From an uncultured delta proteobacterium (lineage in GTDB: Bacteria; Desulfobacterota; Syntrophobacteria; Syntrophobacterales; Syntrophobacteraceae), in assembly GCA_963808625.1 (NCBI GenBank), contig CAWEHK010000029.1, forward strand, positions 171,235-235,234: a DNA stretch of 64,000 nucleotides, given 5' to 3'. How positions within the stretch are numbered: position 1 is the stretch's first letter; every line of letters begins with the position of its first letter. Positions 7,386-32,060 of the stretch are shown here, in pieces. The position numbers were made by a program, and so were the translations under genes. Under the pieces are notes generated by a model. That model was not told the DNA's origin. It saw nothing but the letters and a program-made list of their open reading frames with translations, and did not search any database.

Positions 7386-7760
7386 GAATTCTTGAGCTCC
7401 TTTTTTGATCATTTCGAAATGATGAGCAACGGGTTTTACGCATAACACAGTCGCCAGGCGAACTCAAGAAAGAGGGCATCCCTGTCTCTTCAATGCCTGG
7501 TGGTGACTGTCCGGACCTGGAAGGATCCCCCGGGAGAAAATATCTCCGCATAAAACTCCTAACTTGCCCAATTTCCCATCATCTGGCAGTATGAAGAAAA
7601 AGTGCTGAGTGCTGAGTGCTGAGTGCGGGTGGGGGCGTTGTCGGGATGGGTTCCCCTTGCATGATCTGATGGTGCGACACAGGGCATGACGTCTGACACG
7701 ATGCGGGTGGTACGGGACGGTTGAAACGCGGCTGCTATTTTTGGAAGAGGCAAAATCGAG

Positions 7761-8270: not shown

Positions 8271-8307
8271 TCCGCACGAGATAAGGCCTCTTTTTTCCAG
8301 TCCAACT

Positions 8308-8372
8308 ATCACCCATCAACCATCAACCATCAACTCATCAACCATCAACCATCAACCATCAACCATCAAATC
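8308..8372 (+). repeat. CCATCAA heptamer array
   Basis: Tandem CCATCAA units seen directly. Confidence 0.9.
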
Positions 8373-10931: not shown

Positions 10932-11000
10932 CCAAGAGCCAGGAGCCAAAAGCCAAGAGCCAAGAGCCAAGAGCCAGGAGCCAGGAGCTAAAAGCCAAAA
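10932..11000. repeat. AGCCAAG/AGCCAGG heptamer array
   Basis: Tandem units just downstream of the nudC stop. Confidence 0.85.
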
Positions 11001-15424: not shown

Positions 15425-15615
15425 AGTGATCAGTGGTCAGTGACTAGTGGCTAGTGGCTAGTGGTCAGTGGTCAGTAGCCGGTAAGGCAGCCACGGTTCA
15501 GGTTGATGCCGATTTGAACAAAGGCCACAGGCAAATGCAAAAAGCTAACCGCCAACCGCCAACCGCCAAGAGCCAGGAGCCAGGAGCCAAGAGCCAAGAG
15601 CCAACCGCCAACAGC
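15425..15615. repeat. heptamer arrays (GTGGTCA/GTGGCTA; CCAACCG/CCAAGAG)
   Basis: Two tandem tracts, at 15425-15480 and 15545-15615. Confidence 0.8.
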
Positions 15616-16598
15616 TAAGAGCTCTCCCCCCCGGCTGATTCCCGGCGGTGCCGGATCATGGCCGGGGTCCCGTAGTCATATTCATGGCGGAGCTGCAGGA
15701 TGATCACGGAACCTATGACCAGGACCATTCCCAGGAGTTGAAGCGGCTCCAGGGATTCACCGAGAAAAAAGTATGAGATGATGCCCGCAGATATGGGTTC
15801 GAGAGTCGCGGTGATGCTGGCTCGCGTGGAACGGATCAGGTTGATGGCGTCGAAATAGAGACCGAAAGGCACGATCGTGCCGAGAATGGCAATATATAGA
15901 ATGAAGCCCCAGGCCGTGGCGGAGTAGGTTCCGGTGAAGGCCTCGAGAGGGAGAGGAGCGGCTTCCCAAAACAGGTGGGCACTGTTCCAAAAAATCGCCG
16001 CGAAGAGGACGGCATAAAAGAGCACCGTCCAGGGATGGTAGCGGTGCATCCCCTTTTCTCCATAAAGGGAATACCAGGCAAAGGCGACCGCGCAAAGAAG
16101 ACCGCAAAGAACGCCCTCCCGGTTCAACGAAAGCAGGTCAAAATTGTAAGCCCCGACGACCAGGTAGCAGCCGAAGGTGGCGCAGACAACCGCAAGCATG
16201 GTTGCCCGCGTCAGCGTGTCCCGCGCAAACAGCAGGGAATATAGAGCGATCAGCACGGGTGCCAGGTATTCAAGCAAAATCGCCACCGCCACCTTGATCT
16301 TACTGATGGCAAGAAGATAGGTGAACTGCACCATGGCCATTCCGGTAGTACCCAGGAGGGCAAAGTAGAGGATGTCCCGACGGGCGATCCGGAGCAATGC
16401 CGGCCGATGCGCCAGGAGCCATACAAAAAGCAGCGCAAGGCCAATCGTCAGGCGCAGCTGCACGAGTTGGAAAGGACTTATTCCCTGGTTGAAGAGGTAC
16501 TTCGCCGATGATCCGGACACTGCCCACATGAGGGCTGCCGTCGCCACATAGAGATAACCACGCCGGGGAATGGGAGTCGGTGATGAGATATTGTTCAT
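15615..16598 (-). CDS. EamA/DMT family transporter
   Basis: About 10 TM helices in two EamA repeats, LEPI motif. Confidence 0.9.
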   Translation of the reverse strand: MNNISSPTPIPRRGYLYVATAALMWAVSGSSAKYLFNQGISPFQLVQLRLTIGLALLFVWLLAHRPALLRIARRDILYFALLGTTGMAMVQFTYLLAISKIKVAVAILLEYLAPVLIALYSLLFARDTLTRATMLAVVCATFGCYLVVGAYNFDLLSLNREGVLCGLLCAVAFAWYSLYGEKGMHRYHPWTVLFYAVLFAAIFWNSAHLFWEAAPLPLEAFTGTYSATAWGFILYIAILGTIVPFGLYFDAINLIRSTRASITATLEPISAGIISYFFLGESLEPLQLLGMVLVIGSVIILQLRHEYDYGTPAMIRHRRESAGGESS

Positions 16599-16623: not shown

Positions 16624-16778
16624 GTGCGCCCCCGCATAAATGGGTGTCCGAATGCCACTCGTCATTCCCGCGTGTTTCTGGCGGGAATCCAGGCTGTGCA
16701 AATTCCCTGGATTCCCGCTAAGAGCATGCGGGAATGACGACCGGGTGGTAATGGACACTTTATTCTGCTGTGCTGTAC
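16624..16778. mobile_element. MITE-like element, copy B
   Basis: Differs at 4 of 155 positions (counted by eye) from the reverse complement of copy E. Confidence 0.85.
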
Positions 16779-17041
16779 TAAGTGGACGCTTGTGGGCTTC
16801 CACCGGAATGACCATCGGGGATTATGGTCATCCCATTATCTGAGCCTATGCGCGACAGCAGGTCAATCGTCTTTCCCATAAGAGTTTACCACAGGACCGC
16901 TCGTGCCCGCTCATTATTTCAGTCTGCCTCACCTGTCAGGATGCAGTGCGCGAATACGCTCGAAGATCATTTCCTCGTTTTTCGATTTGCGATGGACGCG
17001 CGCTTTGCTAACATAGGTAGCGGAGAGATTCATGAGGGTGA

Positions 17042-17092
17042 TGTGGTTGATGGTTGATAGTTGATGGTTGATGGTTGAGTGGTTGATGTGAG
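17042..17092 (+). repeat. GTTGATG heptamer array
   Basis: Tandem units. Confidence 0.8.
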
Positions 17093-17211
17093 GTAGGGTT
17101 GGCATGGGCTGCCGGAGAGATTCACGAGGGTGAATCCAGACCCTGGTAGGAACCGAATAACTGAGGAAATGATGGTATTGATTCTTATGAGGAGATTTGA
17201 AAGGAGGGCGA

Positions 17212-18012
17212 ATGGTTCAGTTCGAAAGTCCCGGTATTGAGGATTTGACCCGGTTTGCGAGCGATGTGCTGCGTCACGCTGGGGATGAGGCACTGCGCTA
17301 CTACGGCAAAGGGGACCCCCTGGTGAAATTTGACTCCGATTTGGTCACAGAAGCCGAGCTTCATCTGATCGATTTCTTTCGGAACCAACTCCAGGCTCAG
17401 TTCCCCGAGCATGGCATCTTTGGGGATGAGCTGCCGAAGCAGGACTACGTCCATGGCGAAAAAAGATATCTCTGGATTTACGATGCCCTGGACGGGGTTG
17501 CCAATTTTCAAGCCGGTATTCCCATCTGGGGGACTTCCCTCGCGCTCCTCGAAAACTTCTGGCCAATTTTTGGGGCCTTTTACATGCCGGTTACGGGGGA
17601 TTTGTTCCATGCTCAAGCCGGTCAAAAAGCCTGGTGGGGCGATGCTGAAATCACGATTCCCGACCATGGTGAAATCAGCAACGAAAGCGTGCTCCTGACC
17701 TACTCGAGGTTTCACAATCATTACCGCTCCTCCTTCCCCGGCAAAATTCGCAACCTCGGCTGCACCGCCGCCCATCTCTGCTACGTCGCCAGAGGGTGCG
17801 CCGAAGGAGCTCTGCTGGCCAATGTTTCCTATCAAGACCTGGCGGCGGCACAAATCATCCTCACCGCAGCAGGCGGTAAGATCTGCAAGCTCGATGGCCA
17901 GGAATTTCACCTCAGTGATTATCTGGATGGAGAGCGGATCGAGGAGCACCTGCTTGCCGCCCCCGAAGGCTCGCATGCGGCCATTGCGATGTATCTGAGC
18001 GAGGCGGAGTGA
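17212..18012 (+). CDS. inositol monophosphatase family protein
   Basis: WIYDALDGVANF and YQDLAAA motifs. RBS AGGAGG. Confidence 0.88.
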   Translation: MVQFESPGIEDLTRFASDVLRHAGDEALRYYGKGDPLVKFDSDLVTEAELHLIDFFRNQLQAQFPEHGIFGDELPKQDYVHGEKRYLWIYDALDGVANFQAGIPIWGTSLALLENFWPIFGAFYMPVTGDLFHAQAGQKAWWGDAEITIPDHGEISNESVLLTYSRFHNHYRSSFPGKIRNLGCTAAHLCYVARGCAEGALLANVSYQDLAAAQIILTAAGGKICKLDGQEFHLSDYLDGERIEEHLLAAPEGSHAAIAMYLSEAE

Positions 18013-18125
18013 GTAGGGAGTAGGAGTAAGGAGTAGGAGTAGGGAGTAGGAAGTAGGGAGTAAGGAGGGGCAGGTAAGAGGAGTAGGGAGTAAGGAGTAG
18101 GAGTAAGGAGTAGAGGGATTAGGGA
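18010..18125 (+). repeat. GAGTAGG heptamer array (left arm)
   Basis: Starts at the IMPase stop. Complementary to the 18565-18697 tract. Confidence 0.9.
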
Positions 18126-18134
18126 GGAGCGATT

Positions 18135-18515
18135 GTGGGGAGAGAAGGGTATGCCGGATACCGGGATTTGAAGGTATTTAAGCTTGCGTACCAGCTTGCC
18201 CTTGAAATTCACGAACTAACGAAGTCCTTTCCTAAAGAAGAGAAGTATGCTCTGGTCGACCAAATTAGACGGTCATCCAGGAGCATTGCGACGAACATTG
18301 CTGAGGCCTGGAAGAAAAGGCGCTACGAAAAGGCATTCATCAGCAAGCTGGTTGATTGTTCGGGAGAAGCCGGTGAAACAGAAGTCTGGCTGGATTTCTG
18401 CCTTGACCTTACGTATATCAAAGCCGATCAGCATCAATATTTTCTGAGTAGATATCAGGAAGTAAGCCGCATGCTTTATGGTATGATAGAAAAAGCCGGA
18501 AGGTTTTCCACATGA
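18135..18515 (+). CDS. four helix bundle protein (23S rRNA intervening-sequence protein family)
   Basis: YRDLKVF...[28 protein letters not shown] signature. Confidence 0.92.
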
Positions 18516-18564
18516 TCACCTCCCTGACTTTTACTGGACCTTCGGCCTCTCGCTCGTTCTCCCC

Positions 18565-18697
18565 GCTTCCTACTGCCTGCTCCCTACTTCTGACTCCCCG
18601 CGTCCCGCTCCCTACTCGCTCTACTCCCTACTCCCTACTCCCTACTCCCTACTCGCCTACTGCTTACTCCCTACTCCCTACTGCTTACTGCCTACTT
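18565..18697 (+). repeat. CCTACTC heptamer array (right arm)
   Basis: Reverse complement of the left-arm unit. Confidence 0.9.
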
Positions 18698-18716
18698 TAA
18701 ACGGAGATTGACGCCC

Positions 18717-19950
18717 ATGATAACGGTGCCCAAGAGTGAGGTTGCCAATCGGCTCGTTGCATTGCAGTCCCTGCTGCAGAGGGAGGAAGTCGAGGCGGCG
18801 ATCATCCGCCAAAATGCGGACCTGTTCTACTTTACCGGCACGGTGCAGGACGCTTACCTGATTGTGCCGGCGTCGGGAGCGCCGGTCTTCCTGGTCCGGC
18901 GGGATGTGGACCGGGCCGGGGAGCAGTCTCCGATCCGCCCGATCCGTTGCGCTCAAGAGCGTCAAGGAAGTCTCCCAGGCGGTCTTTGATGCCTGTGGCA
19001 GCGCCCCCCCGAAACGGGTCGGTCTGGAACTGGACGTCCTCCCTGCCAACACTTTTTTCTTTTTTGATGAAAAGCTTTTTCCGAAGCAGCAGATTGTTGA
19101 TATCAGCGGCCTCATCCGCCAGGTGCGCATGGTGAAATCCCCCTGGGAGCTTGACATGATGCGCCGTGCCGGGGGGGTCTCCCGGGCGGTTGCCGAGGCG
19201 GTGCCGCAACTGCTGCGGGAAGGGATAAGCGAGTTGGAGTTGAGCATCGGGCTCGAGGCTGTCGCCCGAAGAGCCGGTCACCTGGGGCTGATCCGCCTGC
19301 GCGGCTTCAACATGGACATGTATTTCGGGCACATCCTCTCGGGCCCTGAGGCGGCCATTCCCGCTTACGGCGATGCGCCGACAGGCGGTCTCGGAGTGAG
19401 CGCCGCTTTCGGCCAGGGGGCCAGTGAACGCCGCATCAGGGCGGGCGAGATGGTGAGCGTTGACATCATGATGAACTGCCAGGGGTACCTGAGTGACCAG
19501 ACGCGAAACTTCTCCATCGGCCCGCCTCCTTCCAGGCTGGAGGAGGCGTACCGGTTCGTCCAGGAAATCCACCGGCGCTTCCGCGAGGCGGCAAGACCGG
19601 GGGCCGTCACCGGTGAGCTCTATGAGCTGGTCTGGCATTGGGTCACGGAAGCCGGATGGGATGAATGGTTTATGGGCTACGGCGCCGGGCGGGTAGCATT
19701 TATCGGCCATGGGCTGGGGATCGAAGTGGACGAGTTTCCGTTCATTGCGCAGGGGCAGAAACTGGTTCTGCAGGAGGGGATGACGTTTGCCTTCGAGCCC
19801 AAGTTCATCATGCCCGGCCTGGGTATCACCGGCCTTGAAAACACCTATGCGGTCACTTCCGGTGGTCTGGAATCGTTGAACACCGCGACCGAAGAGCTTG
19901 TCATCATCCAGCATGCCGAAGATCAATTTCTTGCCGATTTTCATGCCTGA
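18717..19950 (+). CDS. Xaa-Pro peptidase (M24) family; frameshift near 18945
   Basis: Creatinase-type N-terminus in ORF 18708. GYLSDQTR, GHGLGIEVDE, EPK and GLENT in ORF 18862. Confidence 0.88.
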
Positions 19951-19977
19951 CGATAGAACGGGTAACATTGGGATGTC

Positions 19978-20018
19978 ATTCTGACTTCTGACTTCTGACT
20001 TCTGACTCCTGACTGCTG
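19978..20018 (+). repeat. CTGACTT heptamer array
   Basis: Tandem units. Confidence 0.85.
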
Positions 20019-20040
20019 TCTTCTGCCATAAAGAAAGAGG

Positions 20041-22294
20041 TTGTTTTTGCACATTTTCCTCCAAATCATCCTGCTGACGCTGTTCATCTTCGCCTCGCTC
20101 TCTTACGGCGCGGTCCACTCCTGGGCATATTCGATTGTCTTTGGCGTTACCTTCCTGTTGTGTGCGGTGGTGTTTTTGCAATCCGGCCTCGCTGTGCTGA
20201 GGGGAGGACGGCGTGGAGAAAGTGAACACACAGCGTTATTTTCACCGCTTCGAGGGCCATTTGTAATTTTTCTTGCCGCCTTCATTTGTTACATCCTGTT
20301 GCAGCTTACGCCGTTGCCCGGTTCGCTCCTGAAGGGCCTGTCGCCTTGCACCGCTTATCTTTATGGCCAGGTCCACGAGCTCACTGCCGCGGGGGTTGGA
20401 GGCATAGAACCGGGCCGTCTGGGTGGCGGTTATCTCAGCCTCGACCGGGATAAAACCATCAAGAGCCTCCTCGCCTTCGCCGCTTACCTGGGATTTGCCT
20501 TCCTCGTCACGCGGGCGGTTCGGGGGTCTCGTGATGCGAATCGCTTCGCCCTGGTCATCATCATTTTTTCCGCCGGGCTCTCTCTTTACGGGCTGCTCAG
20601 CCTCTTTTATGCCTCCCCCAAGATTGCCGGATGGAAGAATCCTTTCAGCACCGGGAGCAGGGTGTCGGCGACCCTGGTCAATGCCGATCATTTTGGCAGC
20701 TTCCTGCTCATGGCGATTTATCTCACGCTTGGCTATCTGGCCGCCTTCCTCAAGAAGTTGCCGCCAACCGTGGAGGGAAGCCGCCGGCAGCGCTGGATGA
20801 GCATCCTCAATGCCGAAGAGGCCTATATCCCCAAGGCGTTTCTCCTCCTTTTCCTGATGGCCGTGATGGTAATGGTCTTGCTCTACACCCTGTCGCGGGG
20901 CGCAGTCACCGGCTTATCCATATCCCTGGTTTTTTGCTTTCTGCTGCTCTTTCTCAAGACCAGGAGACCGGTTTTTCTGCTGTTCATCATTCCGCTGGCC
21001 CTGTTTGTCGGCTACTACATCCAGGCGGTGGGCGTCGATCCTCTTTTGCAGCGGATCGAGCAAACGAAAAAGGAGCTGCTCGAGCTGGATGAAAATGCCC
21101 GCACCCAATTCTACGTTGCGGGTCTTGAGCTCTGGCGAAAATTTCCCTGGTTTGGGACCGGCCTGGGGTCCTTTGAAGTCGTCTACCCGATGACCGCGCC
21201 GGAGGTTTACAAGGGTTGGTACATTCCATACGTCCACAATGACTGGCTGCAATTGGCCGTTGAGACCGGCTGGACAGGGGCGGTCCTGTTTCTTCTGGCA
21301 GTGGGGCGTCCTGGTCAGGATTATCCGCCGCTGGTGGCGGACCGAGGAGCGCTGGGGTTTTGGCTTTGGGCTGGCGGCTTTTGGGGCGGTGGTGGCGGAG
21401 GGAATTCACTCACTCGTGGATTTTGGCCTGAGAACATCAGTCAATGCGATTTTCCTGTCGCTCCTGGTTTCCCTGTCGCTGGCGGCACTTGATGCCGAAT
21501 TTGGAAGCAGGAAGAAGCCGACTTCTAACTTCCCCAAGAAGAGGTTTCTGTTCACCGGCTCTGTTTTCTTCCTCGTATCGCTCGCTTCTGCTTTAGCAGG
21601 AATCGAGATAGGCCGCTATGCTCTGGCTGAATACTCCAGCCCGACCGAGATCAATACCGTTAGCAGGAGGGATTATGAATGGAGTGGAGAGAGGGTGGAA
21701 AAGGCCTTGAGTTTGAACCCACTCAACGGAGACTACTGGCTGCGCCTTGCTGAGCTCAGGATCTGACCGAAGAGGAAGCCAACCATGCGCGAGGCCGCCG
21801 GTTCGCCTCGTGCTGCCTCAGTGCCGCTGGAGGGACAGCCTGGTTGCAGGGATAAACAATCTGACCACGATGCCGTCGTGGACGGTATGTTCGCCAGGGC
21901 TATCAGCCTGTCACCCGCTGAGGGGGAGTTCTGGCTGGCATGGGGGAGCCGTCTCTGGGAGAAAGCGAAGAACGGGGATGCACCGGCAAATCGCCTTCTG
22001 GATCATGCCGCTCGATGCTATGAAATGGCAGTCGAGCTGCGCCCCAAAGTGCCTTCCGTTCATGAGCGCGCCATTGCCTATTTCCTCTGGTACCGGCAGT
22101 GGTTGGTCAACGAAAATGCTTCGGAATCCGTGATTCAGGCAAGGGCCCTTGCGCCCCTGAAGAAAAGCCTCGGGTATTTGATTGCGAACAATCCCGATTA
22201 TCGCAAAATTCTCGGCCCGGTCCTAAAAGAAATGAACCTGCCCGAGTCGGAACTCGAACAGGTTCTTGCTGAGCTACAGCAGCCTTCAAACTGA
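20041..22294 (+). CDS. O-antigen ligase family membrane protein with C-terminal TPR-like region; frameshifts near 21305 and 21760
   Basis: TLVNADHF, TLSRGA, GTGLGSF, HNDWLQLAVETG and HSLVDF motifs across three consecutive ORFs. Confidence 0.8.
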
Positions 22295-22323: not shown

Positions 22324-22662
22324 CTATCTAATAGGGCTCGGTGTGGAGCAGCAGCCGGTGCATCTTCTCACAATATCGTAATCGATTTGATTGACAACAC
22401 CGTCGCCGTTCAGGTCGTATTTTTTGCAGCCGGCTGTCTTCCAGCACCGGTAAACGAGCTGTACGTCTGTCGCAGTAACCGTTCCATCACCGTTGACATC
22501 CGCACCGCACGTTCCGTAACAGTCGAAACATGTGGTGTAGTTATTGGGGTTATAAGGGTCTTTGCATACTGCAAAAGCCTCATTTACCCCGCACGGTATG
22601 CCGCTGAGGAATAGGGCGCCAAGCAGAGCTCCCAAAATGATAAAAACCCCAGACCTTTTCAT
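22324..22662 (-). CDS. small secreted Cys-rich dockerin-like protein
   Basis: Signal peptide and paired Ca-binding loops DVNGDGTVTATD and DLNGDGVVNQID. Confidence 0.8.
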   Translation of the reverse strand: MKRSGVFIILGALLGALFLSGIPCGVNEAFAVCKDPYNPNNYTTCFDCYGTCGADVNGDGTVTATDVQLVYRCWKTAGCKKYDLNGDGVVNQIDYDIVRRCTGCCSTPSPIR

Positions 22663-22689
22663 CTGAACCTCCTCCCTCAGCCCCGGCGA

Positions 22690-23781
22690 TCACCTGACTT
22701 TCGCGCAGATGCAGCCATTCTTCATACAGGCCGTCAGGACCTCATAATCTGTCATATCAACAAAACCGTCTCTATTTATGTCCATCGTCGGGTCGCCACA
22801 ATTTGTTTTAACGCATCTCAACAGAACCGCAGCCTCTCTAGCGGTCAGCGTCCCGTCTTTGGCAAACTCAAAATTCAGCGCCAAACAGTCCGCAGGACAT
22901 CCTTGTGCGGCTACCGATCCGGCAGACAGCATCAGGAGGGATGGGGTGATGCAAAGTACGGCGATCAACAAGAGCGTGGGGAAATTACGCCTGGTGCTTC
23001 GGTACCTCGAAATCACCAGAATGAAGGATGCGGCAAGGACAAGGGCAAAGATCACCGTTCCATTACCCGAGAATGCTGGAACACCGGGCGGTGGAACAAT
23101 GCAGATCCTCGGTGGACGGTTCACGATCGTCAGCGGATATTGCGTGAAAACATCATCATCTGGAGTATCGTCGCAGCCATTGACAAAGCTTGGACAATCA
23201 GCATCAGGCGTGAACATTTCGAAACACTCCCCGACACCGGCAATGGCTTTAAAAGTAAGGGTCGACACGAGCTTTGGCTCGTTGAACGGGACCGGCTCCG
23301 CGCAGGGAGCACCGTTGATGCCATAGCCGGCAATGTCGATCCACTTGATGTTCGCCACACCTGGCGGAGGTCCGGGGATTGGCTGGTACTGACAGCCTTC
23401 GCAGGCATTGAGGCCTATCGGCCAACCCGGAGCAGTGCAATCGTCAGAGCAGGTTGGCCTGAAAAAGGTCCCCGCCGGCGGGGTGGGGGTCGTACAAAAA
23501 TCAGGACCTGTAGCACAGGCCGGATCAGCCGGCGCCGTGCAGGGTATGTCCAGGGGTACCAGGCTGAAGATAGCCTCGTCATAGTCGATACAGTACTGGT
23601 AGCCGCAGACATTGTTCGGTGGGGGGCTGTTAACATCCAGCATCACCGTAACCGTGAACGGTTGGCCAAGCTCCACGATCGTCGGATGATCGATGATCAA
23701 ATTGACGCTGGCCAGTGCATAGCCTGGAAGGAATAACGCAAGTAAAAAAACAATGCACAATAATTTTCTCATTTTCACCAT
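22690..23781 (-). CDS. secreted cohesin-like protein with internal IPTL/PEP-CTERM-like anchor and C-terminal dockerin-like domain
   Basis: Signal peptide; GQPFTVTVML...GYQYCIDYD cohesin-like strands; VPAFS + TM + RYR; second hydrophobic segment ending VAAQ; DINRDGFVDMTD. Confidence 0.7.
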   Translation of the reverse strand: MVKMRKLLCIVFLLALFLPGYALASVNLIIDHPTIVELGQPFTVTVMLDVNSPPPNNVCGYQYCIDYDEAIFSLVPLDIPCTAPADPACATGPDFCTTPTPPAGTFFRPTCSDDCTAPGWPIGLNACEGCQYQPIPGPPPGVANIKWIDIAGYGINGAPCAEPVPFNEPKLVSTLTFKAIAGVGECFEMFTPDADCPSFVNGCDDTPDDDVFTQYPLTIVNRPPRICIVPPPGVPAFSGNGTVIFALVLAASFILVISRYRSTRRNFPTLLLIAVLCITPSLLMLSAGSVAAQGCPADCLALNFEFAKDGTLTAREAAVLLRCVKTNCGDPTMDINRDGFVDMTDYEVLTACMKNGCICAKVR

Positions 23782-23859
23782 GATCTTCCCTCCCCTTTTA
23801 TGGAAAGACGAACCGTGCAAGAACCCACCTCCTGAAGACAAAGGTAGCGGCCTTGTTCT

Positions 23860-26250: not shown

Positions 26251-27593
26251 CTAGAATAAGCTTTCAGGAACGATGATCATATCGTTCTCTTCCAGATAAA
26301 CGGTCTCTTTCTTGCCGCCCTTCATCATGTCGCCGACCCGCACGCGAATTTCCTGTTCGATTCCTCCCGCCACGCGGTAGATCCACACCTTGTTCTTGGC
26401 GGCGATGGGCGTGAACCCTCCAGCCTGGATGATGGCTTCGAGGATGCTCGTCCTGCGGTAGCTGTCGAGCGTGTAAATCCCGGGATTCTTGACCTCACCC
26501 ATGATCATGTAGCGAAAGGCCCTCGGCATGTAGATAATGTCCTCATCCCTGAGGAGGATATTCGTCGCGGGGTCCTTGCCCCGAATGAGATCGTTGAGGT
26601 TGATTTCGATGGCGAGCTTGGATGCGGGACCCGCCTTGCGTACCACAAAAATCTTGGTGCTGTCCTTGGTGAAATCGACTCCACCCGCCTCGGCGATGAC
26701 ATCCAGCAACCTTTGATTGGCCTTGAGATAATACTGTCCGGCCTTGCCGATAGCTCCAAAAACCTTGATATTACGGCTCTGGATTTCAAGGAGGGTGACG
26801 TTGGCTTCGGGGTTGTTCAGGATCCTTCGCTCGAGGGCAGACTGTTTTACGGTCCGGGCAATTTCGTCAATCGTCATGCCGGCGACCTGGACCTTGCCGA
26901 CCAGCGCCAGGTTAATGTTGCCGTCGGGCAGGACCGTAAACTTCCCGGACAGGTCCGGTGCTTCGAAGAAGTCTACCTGGATGACATCCTTTGGGCCGAC
27001 CCGGTAGAAAGCCAGAGAATCTCTTTCTTCGGGCTCACTTCGCAGGTAGTCGTGGACATCGATCCGGGTGACCCCTTCGAGCTCTTCCGTGAGCCTCAGT
27101 TCGTCCGGCGCCTGGTCCTTCCTGAGCTCCTGCAAGCCCTTTTCCCGCAGCCCACCCACCGCCTGCTTGTCCGACAGCGTCTTCGTTTTAACGATACCTG
27201 ATCCTGCACATCCCGCTGAGATCAGAACAACAAGTGCGAAAATAGTTGATAGTTGATAGTTGATGGTTGATGAGGGGCGGTTGATGAGGGGCGGTTGATG
27301 GTTGATGAGGGGCGGTTGATGGTTGATGGTTGATGGTTGATGAGGGGCGGTTGATGGTTGATGGTTGATGGTTGATGAGGGGCGGTTGATGGTTGATGGT
27401 TGATGGTTGATGAGGGGCGGTTGATGGTTGATGGTTGATGGTTGATGGTTGATGGTTGATGGTGGACTGGTTGATGGGTGATAGTTGATGGTTGATGGTT
27501 GATGGTTGAAGAGGGGAACCGCCGTTGTTTGTTTGGGATTTCAAACATTGGTGCACCAATATTACGTTCTGATAAATTCATATAGTCTGCCAT
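26251..27593 (-). CDS. wza: polysaccharide export lipoprotein (Wza/SLBB); signal peptide interrupted out of frame by a heptamer array
   Basis: YRVGPKDVI...DGNINLALVG, two SLBB repeats, C-terminal IIVPESLF. Lipobox ISAGC lies downstream of the array; the start codons lie upstream in another frame. Confidence 0.8.
27243..27509. repeat. long GTTGATG heptamer array with GAGGGGCG variant units
   Basis: About 265 bp of tandem units. Confidence 0.95.
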
Positions 27594-27643
27594 GCTTCCT
27601 TCGCCTACCACCGATTGACTGTCAAAATTCCGCAACCCAAAAT

Positions 27644-27730
27644 CCACCATCCACTATCCACCATCAACCATCAACTATCCACCATCAACTATCCACCATC
27701 AACTATCCACCATCAACTATCAACCATCCA
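27644..27730. repeat. CCATCAA/CTATCCA heptamer array
   Basis: Inverted relative to 27243-27509. Confidence 0.9.
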
Positions 27731-28084
27731 CCTGGTACTTCCGAAGCGCACTGATCTTCTTGGCGATGAGCTCAGTTTATCCCTCAAACCATAGAAAAGA
27801 TCTTCAGCCAGGTAACCCAATTCTCTGGCAATAATGAGCTGGCACAAAACCTCGGTCAATGATCCGTAGGCAATCTGAGAGAAGTGCGCCTGGTCTTTCT
27901 TTGATGTCCGGCTCGCGCCTTCCGCCAGGTTGGATGCAACCGAAACGGCCGCCCGTTGGATTTGACTCACAAGCCCGTACCTCTCGGACTCAGGGAAGAG
28001 CCGAGTAGCTCTGTAAATCCCTATGACCAAATCCTTGGCTAATTGCCAGACCTCAAGCTTTTCAAACGGAAACAAGTATTCCAT
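27720..28084 (-). CDS. four helix bundle protein (IVP family); probable homopolymer frameshift near the C-terminus
   Basis: FEKLEVWQ...FPESERYGLVSQIQRAAVSVASNLAEG. One added A restores the ending ...KTELIAKKISALRKYQVDG*. Confidence 0.9.
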
Positions 28085-28094
28085 ACTTTTAGAA

Positions 28095-28190
28095 CCCATC
28101 AACCATCCACCATCAACCATCAACCATCAACCATCAACCATCAACAATCAACTATCAACCATCAACCCTCCACCATCAACCATCAACTCA
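28095..28190. repeat. CCATCAA heptamer array
   Basis: Tandem units between the barrel gene stop and the four-helix gene. Confidence 0.95.
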
Positions 28191-29509: not shown

Positions 29510-29680
29510 CAGCCCCACCTCCCACTCCCTACTGCCTACTGCTTACTCCCTGCTTCCCACTCCCCACTCTCACCCTTCAGCCCCACTCCCCACTTGCTAC
29601 TCCCCACTCCCTATTACTCGCTTACTCCCTACTGCCTACTCCCTACTGCCTACTCCCTACTCCCTACTCCCTACTCCCCC
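29510..29680. repeat. CTACTCC heptamer array
   Basis: Tandem units overlapping the stop of the WecA-like gene. Confidence 0.88.
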
Positions 29681-31927: not shown

Positions 31928-32060
31928 CCCCACCAACCATCCCCCCCTCAACCATCAACATCCCCCATCCCCCATCAACCATCAACTCATCCCCCATCAA
32001 CCATCAACCATCAACTCATCCCCCATCAACCATCAACCATCAACCATCAACCATCAACTC
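31928..32060. repeat. CCATCAA/CCATCCC heptamer array
   Basis: Tandem units starting at the stop of the WecB-family gene. Confidence 0.9.

Follow-up and report, generated by a model that had tools for sequence, protein, structure and literature searches.

A small four-helix-bundle gene of the 23S rRNA IVP family, which was originally discovered in rRNA intervening sequences, lies between two protein-coding genes, bracketed by complementary arrays of a 7-base repeat. This arm-gene-arm unit recurs at many unrelated sites and in many phyla, comes and goes between congeners, and carries a conserved protein. By a modest preference, we read it as a promoterless come-and-go cassette that would be looped from the host transcript, whose Avd-like protein would bind its own repeats, and which would decay into dispersed arrays. 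The window, the whole stretch of 64,000 nucleotides analyzed here, belongs to the source genome G000; G001, G002, G006, and G007 are among its congeners. The cassette and its host genes are laid out as follows.

17212–18012, plus strand: host gene upstream, an inositol-monophosphatase (IMPase)-family phosphatase (HisN, IMPase, and CysQ models, all below cut-off; start from rough gene calls).
18010–18126, plus strand: left arm, a G-rich period-7 array of the GGAGTAG/GGAGTAA type (tandem-repeat detection).
18123–18127, plus strand: GGAGG at the inner end of the left arm, putative ribosome-binding site (RBS) of the IVP gene.
18135–18515, plus strand: four-helix-bundle/23S rRNA IVP family gene, 126 aa (profile search, structure model, dN/dS).
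18516–18558, plus strand: pyrimidine-rich, degenerate inner portion of the right arm (sequence reading, fold).
18559–18697, plus strand: right arm, a C-rich period-7 array of the CCTACTC/CTTACTG type, complementary to the left arm (repeat detection, fold).
18717–19950, plus strand: host gene downstream, an M24 (Xaa-Pro) peptidase, split by a one-base insertion (profile search, congener comparison).

The stop codon of the IMPase-family gene (TGA, 18010–18012) doubles as the first unit of the left arm. Repeat detection returned a GAGTAGG-type array at 18011–18126 (16.4 copies, 74% matches), which holds stop codons in all three frames (4, 4, and 7 over 18010–18126), and a CCTACTC-type array at 18559/18569–18696 (17.9 copies). 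The right arm ends 6 nt ahead of a GGAG (18703–18706) and 20 nt ahead of the peptidase ATG (18717). The enclosed ORF matched TIGR02436 with 111.6 bits (cut-off 24) and PF05635 with 116.1 bits (cut-off 33.8), and its G+C content is 45%, compared with 55.7% for the source genome. The preliminary description had placed (GAGTAGG)n at the IMPase stop, an IVP-family ORF after it, and (CCTACTC)n up to the peptidase RBS, and the array coordinates and the TIGR02436 score bear this out. No transposase or other enzyme is encoded within the cassette. Searches for a promoter and a terminator of its own gave 2 and 1 hits, respectively, in 16650–20100, at or below shuffle level. The peptidase gene carries one extra base near 18944 relative to G007, and its open frame spans at least 400 codons in most congeners; the insertion is either real or an assembly error. 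Overlapping the IVP stop is an ATG from which a frame of 62 codons runs through the right arm (18512–18700) and terminates just ahead of the peptidase RBS; such an ATG also occurs in many congener loci. Translational coupling through the right arm was rejected as a general rule, with the overlapping ATG found in 9 of 72 homologues and in 187 of 936 control genes.

Folding of 18010–18697 gave –297 kcal/mol, against –227 ± 8 kcal/mol for 20 dinucleotide shuffles (z –9.1). The predicted structure joins left and right arms by 101 pairs into a terminal stem with the S23p/IVP ORF in its loop, and in this fold 3 of the 5 bases of the GGAGG at 18123–18127 are paired. The imperfect stem of about 100 bp proposed earlier from the complementary arms is thereby reproduced, as a prediction. 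We looked for a signature of pairing at the RNA level in an excess of G-U over A-C. Under a permissive alignment that extended into the flanks, G-U prevailed at 44 of the 59 loci without a tie. With strict alignments, the ratios were 90:89 and 76:69 and controls leaned the same way or more, and this candidate signature was dropped. With no G-U excess in the arms under strict alignment (90:89), nothing marks the RNA strand as the pairing one. Rfam returned no match at the cassette (L001, L133), so this copy does not lie in an rRNA helix.

The structure model of the IVP protein has four helices (pLDDT 93.6) and is closest to 2RLD and 2GSC, followed by Avd. These two entries, BT_0352 and XCC0516, respectively, are solved IVP structures and pentamers (5-chain entries); the model superposes on 2GSC with a TM score of 0.84 and an rmsd of 1.3. 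Similarity to Avd reached TM 0.76–0.77 (8UB7 and 4DWL) at 14–15% identity, in agreement with the structural kinship claimed beforehand, and the protein scored 42.3 bits on the Avd model, below its cut-off of 80. By analogy with the 5-chain entries and the part of PMC4990558 available, we infer that the query protein would form a homopentameric ring. Avd is described, in the accessible part of its structural report, as a pentamer binding an RNA stem-loop with flipped-out bases in the crevices between protomers (10.1101/2023.10.23.563531). An imperfect periodic duplex would be a natural ligand for an Avd-like ring.

G000 has 8 PF05635 matches, 6 of them above cut-off. Each of these six IVP genes has a G-rich array upstream and a complementary array downstream, and the six heptamers all differ. 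Arrays are absent from an Avd-like PF05635 match that adjoins a reverse transcriptase, and a broken remnant retains no more than a short downstream run. Reverse-transcriptase matches number 4 in G000, and no PF00078 match lies on C29, the contig of the cassette. At C43:93708–95559, an Avd-like gene stands beside a reverse-transcriptase match, and the stretch between them is presumably template-repeat-like; this locus is probably a DGR.

The survey was extended to 137 IVP loci (80 homologues plus congener and phylum loci), of which 128 had full flanks. Under a strict test, inverted periodic arms were found at 64 of the 128 loci and in 1 of 231 control windows. Not all of these loci are independent, and arms that are short or decayed, as in the rRNA copies, escape the test. 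The period was 7 at 56 passing loci, 8 at seven, and 9 at one. Homologues passed in 36 of 74 cases, congener loci in 19 of 28, and phylum loci in 9 of 26. Among the 64 failing loci, perhaps some were missed by the detector and some are truly armless. The expectation that the flanks of TIGR02436/PF05635 genes carry inverted periodic arms thus held, under the strict test, for half of the loci; together with the 6 of 6 armed genes in G000, it upholds the earlier view of a general system. In the Flavobacteria genome G227 (locus L099), visual inspection of seven IVP loci (L206–L212) showed short A-rich arms, with inverted partners, at most of them; the design is therefore not restricted to genomes rich in G+C.

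A tree based on 105 columns covers the 62 passing loci whose proteins are nearly full length, in 49 site clusters; many of its forks stay open. In it, the query belongs to a clade of 24 proteins (98/92) with 10 phylum labels, all of which share its heptamer family by reading, and a sister clade of 6 proteins from three phyla (100/98) has 8-mers. Repeats from different sites agreed in 61 of 102 pairs at protein identities of at least 70% and in 45 of 1090 pairs below 40%. This signal comes from the clade of the query; outside it, 1 of 11 pairs at 60% identity or more met the threshold, and 9 of 11 shared period 8. Similar heptamers also flank distant IVP proteins (L111, L115, L149, L080). In 13 of 16 pairs, dN/dS was 0.02–0.19, with the other 3 saturated, so that the IVP protein is under purifying selection. 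Even between proteins so distant that synonymous sites are saturated, the heptamer family is kept. A dedicated partner enzyme was sought near the cassettes and discarded: among the 58 flanking frames scanned, of 92 extracted, no enzyme recurs, and the flanking genes are ordinary and varied.

Congeners offer filled, half, and empty alleles of these sites. The IMPase orthologue was matched in 69 of 81 genomes, and in the best 30 loci, which were examined for neighbors, the peptidase lies directly next to it in three (G000, G007, and G002). The junctions of G007 and G002 are 60 and 50 nt long and hold a G-rich left arm only; G001 has a similar G-rich run before its peptidase in a different gene order. 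Since these relatives without the IVP gene keep the left arm, the IMPase–peptidase site is not a clean empty one. The adjacency without the insert that had been anticipated in relatives therefore exists in two congeners as far as the gene is concerned, but the left arm stays in both. The gene was either gained by G000 into an old arm or lost by the others. After proC, G002 carries an IVP cassette, 81% identical; the corresponding site of G000 contains an empty hairpin whose repeats belong to the same heptamer family. A dS of about 2 between the G000 and G002 cassette copies indicates a long separation and shows no recent jump.

Between carB and purF (6 loci), G000 is filled, four congeners have the right arm only, and one has a left arm of another heptamer. 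As a separate observation at this site (L121, L171–L175), in G000 and four congeners the purF start codon precedes the C-rich arm, whose codons form part of the PurF leader; the heptamers drift. The hdr site (8 loci) has 3 filled alleles, 1 collapsed hairpin, 1 solo right arm, 1 unrelated palindrome, and 2 clean alleles; the phoU site (7 loci) has 2 filled alleles, and the remainder are short remnants or clean. Two duplicated segments of G000, 91–94% identical over their flanks, differ in that one is filled and the other holds an empty hairpin; they may come from two strains in the assembly. These allele states across congener sites substantiate the claim of a self-contained repeat-ORF-repeat unit present or absent between operon genes. 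The same comparison showed that arms persist, lengthen, and drift once the gene is lost. Visual inspection of the phoU, hdr, and 23S junctions, which are old sites with only short microhomologies, revealed no target-site duplications.

In G002, a cassette with short heptamer arms sits in two 23S rRNA genes (L122 and L128; Rfam match), at a site that we take from the flanking sequence to be helix 45. The 23S rRNA on contig C22 of G000, 97% identical to that of G002, has a plain short helix and no cassette. The likeness to 23S rRNA intervening sequences (IVS) that had been pointed out earlier thus extends to the same design inside the 23S rRNA of a congener. In G006, a cassette (L111, C1:222536–225850) is nested within a long gene that, judging by its motifs, is presumably methyltransferase-like. 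The host frame is open across the whole cassette, in a frame other than that of the IVP gene, and amounts to a 160-residue insert relative to the G000 homologue. Such a sense-strand host frame open through the cassette was found at this locus alone among the 122 tested. It argues against cut-and-rejoin of the mRNA there, and splicing of the cassette is disfavored by this single intragenic case.

The arms are also dispersed through G000 without the gene. The genome holds 305 period-7 arrays, compared with at most 25 at each of periods 4–6 and 8–13; the detector used for all later counts gave 326. With period-7 arrays genome-wide, the arms are not peculiar to the two IVP genes of the window, and gene-less arrays outnumber IVP genes by about 50 to 1. 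By our own rough gene calls, 297 arrays are intergenic. In 134 cases, a stop on the same strand lies no more than 40 nt from where the G-rich strand begins; in 50, the C-rich strand terminates at most 40 nt from a start, and the inner array end lies near a gene in only 33. Within one mismatch, 232 of the 326 arrays match one of the six cassette heptamers (12% by chance for random G-rich heptamers). Neighboring gene-less arrays 30–700 nt apart form 31 pairs with the G-rich array left and the C-rich array right, and 1 pair in the reverse order. Heptamers are matched in 9 of these 31 pairs (expected 13%, p 0.015) and unmatched in 22. Set against the 6 of 6 gene-bearing sites, arm matching is therefore the rule with the gene and the exception without it, and most gene-less pairs are not simple relics of one cassette. 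Stop codons were considered as a defining trait of the G-rich unit and rejected as not general: they occur on the G-rich strand only in 153 of the 326 arrays and on neither strand in 106. Three units of the query heptamer were found in 11 of 150 further genomes from the phylum. A PF05635 match is present in 10 of these 11 (one below cut-off) and in 79 of the other 139, for which p is 0.023 with kin not independent. A close homologue of the query IVP occurs in 1 of the 11, with an array directly upstream of it.

The second copy with a different heptamer that the preliminary description reported in the window is indeed present, on the minus strand, and a gene-less array of the first cassette's family lies nearby.

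28094–28187, minus strand: G-rich left arm of the second cassette (GTTGATG type), beginning at the stop of an EpsL-like gene (repeat detection, profile search).
27713–28123, minus strand: IVP gene of the second cassette, frameshifted near its 3′ end (profile search, 105 bits).
27642–27732, minus strand: extra G-rich array directly after the gene (repeat detection).
27245–27509, minus strand: C-rich right arm ahead of a polysaccharide-export gene (repeat detection).
29519–29678, minus strand: gene-less array of the heptamer family of the 18010–18697 cassette, G-rich on the minus strand at a stop codon (repeat detection).

In this second cassette, the extra G-rich array stands between the IVP gene and the complementary arm. 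Among 7 congeners searched for an orthologue of its site, one gave a match, and that was partial. Positions 7601–43380 of the window contain about 15 more gene-less period-7 arrays from several families, for example at 8303–8369, 10932–10998, 15543–15622, 17044–17088, 19979–20025, and 31948–32058. Elsewhere in the window, two predicted cysteine-rich proteins (22324–23841, minus strand) adjoin the polysaccharide-export cluster and have D-x-N-x-D-G motifs that we take to be dockerin-like, and an ORF at 1140–1676 contains a 162-base tandem repeat (3.3 copies, 93% matches).

A comparable layout was observed around an unrelated family. Of nine GxxExxY (PF13366, PD-(D/E)XK-like) matches in G000, the four full-length genes inspected are all flanked, by eye, by short inverted arrays of 9–10 bases.

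C24:66100–66450: GxxExxY gene with inverted 9–10-mer arrays (by eye).
C8:266490–266837: GxxExxY gene with inverted 9–10-mer arrays (by eye).
C37:23003–23350: GxxExxY gene with inverted 9–10-mer arrays (by eye).
C19:104070–104408: GxxExxY gene with inverted 9–10-mer arrays (by eye).

These loci resemble the IVP cassettes in layout but encode a nuclease-fold protein and use 9–10-mers.

Among known systems, ORF-bearing 23S rRNA IVS (Coxiella burnetii helix 45, Leptospira; S23p, PF05635) likewise have a gene of this protein family in a loop closed by a terminal stem. The 18010–18697 unit differs in sitting between protein-coding genes and in its long periodic arrays on both sides. The Coxiella IVS is cut out by RNase III and has direct heptamer repeats before its ORF; in the available part of this report, the heptamers are direct repeats on one side and the protein is decaying, whereas the cassette IVP genes are under purifying selection (PMC4990558). 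DGR Avd has the same fold, but the cassette has no adjacent reverse transcriptase or template repeat, and its neighbors are a phosphatase and a peptidase. RAYT genes with their REP/REPIN sequences, as presented in the accessible part of PMC3686654, occur as single genes between inverted cognate repeats; hundreds of copies without the gene are also present, and their classes correspond to the resident gene. In our case, 232 of 326 arrays match resident cassettes in G000, and a close homologue occurs in 1 of the 11 other array-bearing genomes. RAYT is an HUH tyrosine transposase acting with palindromic REPs, whereas IVP has no known catalytic fold and is accompanied by tandem 7-8-mers. By its design the cassette is like an rRNA intervening sequence, by its location it is not one, and judged by their defining enzymes it is neither a DGR nor a REPtron.

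Heptamer arrays have been described elsewhere. Xanthomonas campestris has 186 GGGAATC arrays with 70 cases of convergent pairs; their G-rich strand lies just after a stop (sense) or just before a start (antisense), with inverted doublets, in the portion of PMC4692102 available. This is the placement rule of the G000 period-7 arrays. As a prediction, we sought an array at the gene of the solved IVP structure XCC0516, and GGGAATC array 15, six bases past the bccP stop, overlaps the XCC0516 start; an inverted partner was absent from the table (PMC4692102 and its supplement, as far as accessible). For GGGAATC in Xanthomonas, GGGGA(C/T)T in Nostoc, and TAACTGA in Beggiatoaceae, the available parts of the reports discuss quadruplexes or an unknown binding protein and name no associated gene family. 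Forward TAACTGA repeats put stop codons on the strand facing the start, unlike most G000 arrays. Horizontal spread and an unknown binding protein were suspected for TAACTGA, and MacGregor proposed translational regulation for another heptamer, in the accessible portion of PMC4679880, whose main text mentions neither ‘four helix’ nor ‘S23’ nor ‘intervening’. The available parts of PMC10053308 and PMC8700078 mention the IVP family without repeats. A published link between the IVP family and inverted heptamer arrays outside rRNA was not found in our search, which lay outside most subscription journals.

The surplus of arrays over genes and their match to resident cassette heptamers would also follow if, as for RAYT and REPINs, the IVP protein were a long-resident cognate factor and the arrays non-autonomous elements spreading with its help, products and not scars; a host or DGR-type reverse transcriptase would perhaps be involved, as Avd serves one. 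We regard this as unlikely. It gains from the 184 of 297 intergenic arrays at a stop or just before an RBS, the 31:1 pair polarity, genes held at fixed sites under purifying selection (hdr site), the four reverse-transcriptase matches in G000, and the excess of PF05635 among array-bearing genomes (10 of 11 against 79 of 139, kin not independent). The Xanthomonas arrays, 186 of one heptamer with many gene-less inverted doublets and one beside XCC0516, point the same way in the available part of that report. However, no catalytic domain is known in the IVP protein, the cassettes have no reverse transcriptase next to them, and genome-level coupling to the cognate gene is weak (1 of 11).

Arms amplified by slippage and kept complementary by DNA fold-back copying could instead hitch-hike on a protein that does not recognize them and has another purpose, e.g., defense or regulation, which seems to us quite improbable. 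Watson–Crick symmetry without a G-U excess, arms that persist, lengthen, and drift after gene loss, and the similar layout at 4 of 4 full-length GxxExxY copies inspected fit such a process, and joint inheritance alone could give the clade-heptamer agreement. It is at odds with arms matched at 6 of 6 gene-bearing sites and in only 9 of 31 gene-less pairs, with a heptamer family held where synonymous sites are saturated, and with the RNA-hairpin binding reported, in the part accessible, for the structural relative Avd. The anchoring of the arms exactly at the upstream stop and downstream RBS suggests a host regulatory device, in which the stem is an attenuator or RNase III site tuning the downstream gene and the protein is the switch. 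The ATG over the IVP stop could carry ribosomes through the right arm here, and the MacGregor proposal for another heptamer, in the available part of PMC4679880, is of this kind. We give such a device very little credence: the flanking genes have no common function, sites are freely lost among congeners, homologues show no enrichment of the overlapping ATG over control genes (9 of 72, compared with 187 of 936), and the design also occurs between convergent genes and in rRNA.

The come-and-go cassette is therefore the explanation that we favor, at slightly better than even confidence. Matched arms, the allele series, the 23S rRNA twin, selection, clade-heptamer agreement, the match of arrays to cassette heptamers, the fold shared with the pentamers 2GSC and 2RLD and with hairpin-binding Avd, the lack of a promoter or terminator signal above chance, and the GGGAATC array at XCC0516 count for it. 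Against it count the 64 of 128 loci that fail the strict test, the 22 of 31 unmatched pairs, the missing G-U excess, the 10 of 11 array-bearing genomes without a close homologue, the XCC0516 array without a listed inverted partner, the similar heptamers at distant proteins, the lack of a recurring enzyme in the 58 flanking frames, and the dS of about 2 between the G000 and G002 copies. Two of these, the missing G-U excess and the gene-less pairs with mostly unmatched heptamers, speak against a simple account at the RNA level. In the proposed mechanism, the G-rich arm, IVP gene, and complementary C-rich arm would sit at the gene boundaries of transcribed DNA and be read with the host operon. 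The arms are predicted to pair in the transcript, loop out the gene, partly hide its RBS, and bring the upstream stop close to the downstream RBS, which would make insertion cheap for an operon host, as in an rRNA helix. By analogy with rRNA IVS, RNase III may cut the stem without rejoining, a step for which we see the chances as evenly balanced. Equally poised is the suggestion, drawn from Avd, that a pentameric ring binds its own repeat hairpin and that this binding is what selection keeps. Deletions at the hairpin would take out the gene or one of the arms, and the empty hairpins and solo arms scattered over the genome would be what is left behind. In the weakest step, an arm-gene-arm piece would reach new sites by recombining into existing arrays or heptamer-matching stop codons; host enzymes would be used for spread because the cassette encodes none.

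Our findings join three loose ends: a common protein family that has solved structures but no assigned function, the question of how ORF-bearing rRNA IVS arose and spread, and over-represented bacterial heptamer arrays. Each can now be tested directly, since the protein is named, a ligand is predicted for every protein clade, and filled, half, and empty alleles exist in nature. A wider reading, which we put forward tentatively and with the balance against it, is that IVP proteins are cognate factors of a widespread, unnamed class of mobile repeats. Each Avd-like lineage would read its own 7-/8-base hairpin and promote the copying of cassettes and gene-less arrays into gene boundaries. In that case, the 23S rRNA IVS would mark one of the places where the element settled, and the DGRs would have recruited their Avd from this family. 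The arrays in Xanthomonas, cyanobacteria, and further bacteria would be its footprints, and GxxExxY genes with 9–10-mer arms would form a parallel class. If binding is clade-specific, the family would provide a natural set of small RNA-repeat-binding rings with differing specificities. The cassette may be a source of the scattered 7-base repeats that are unexplained in many bacteria.
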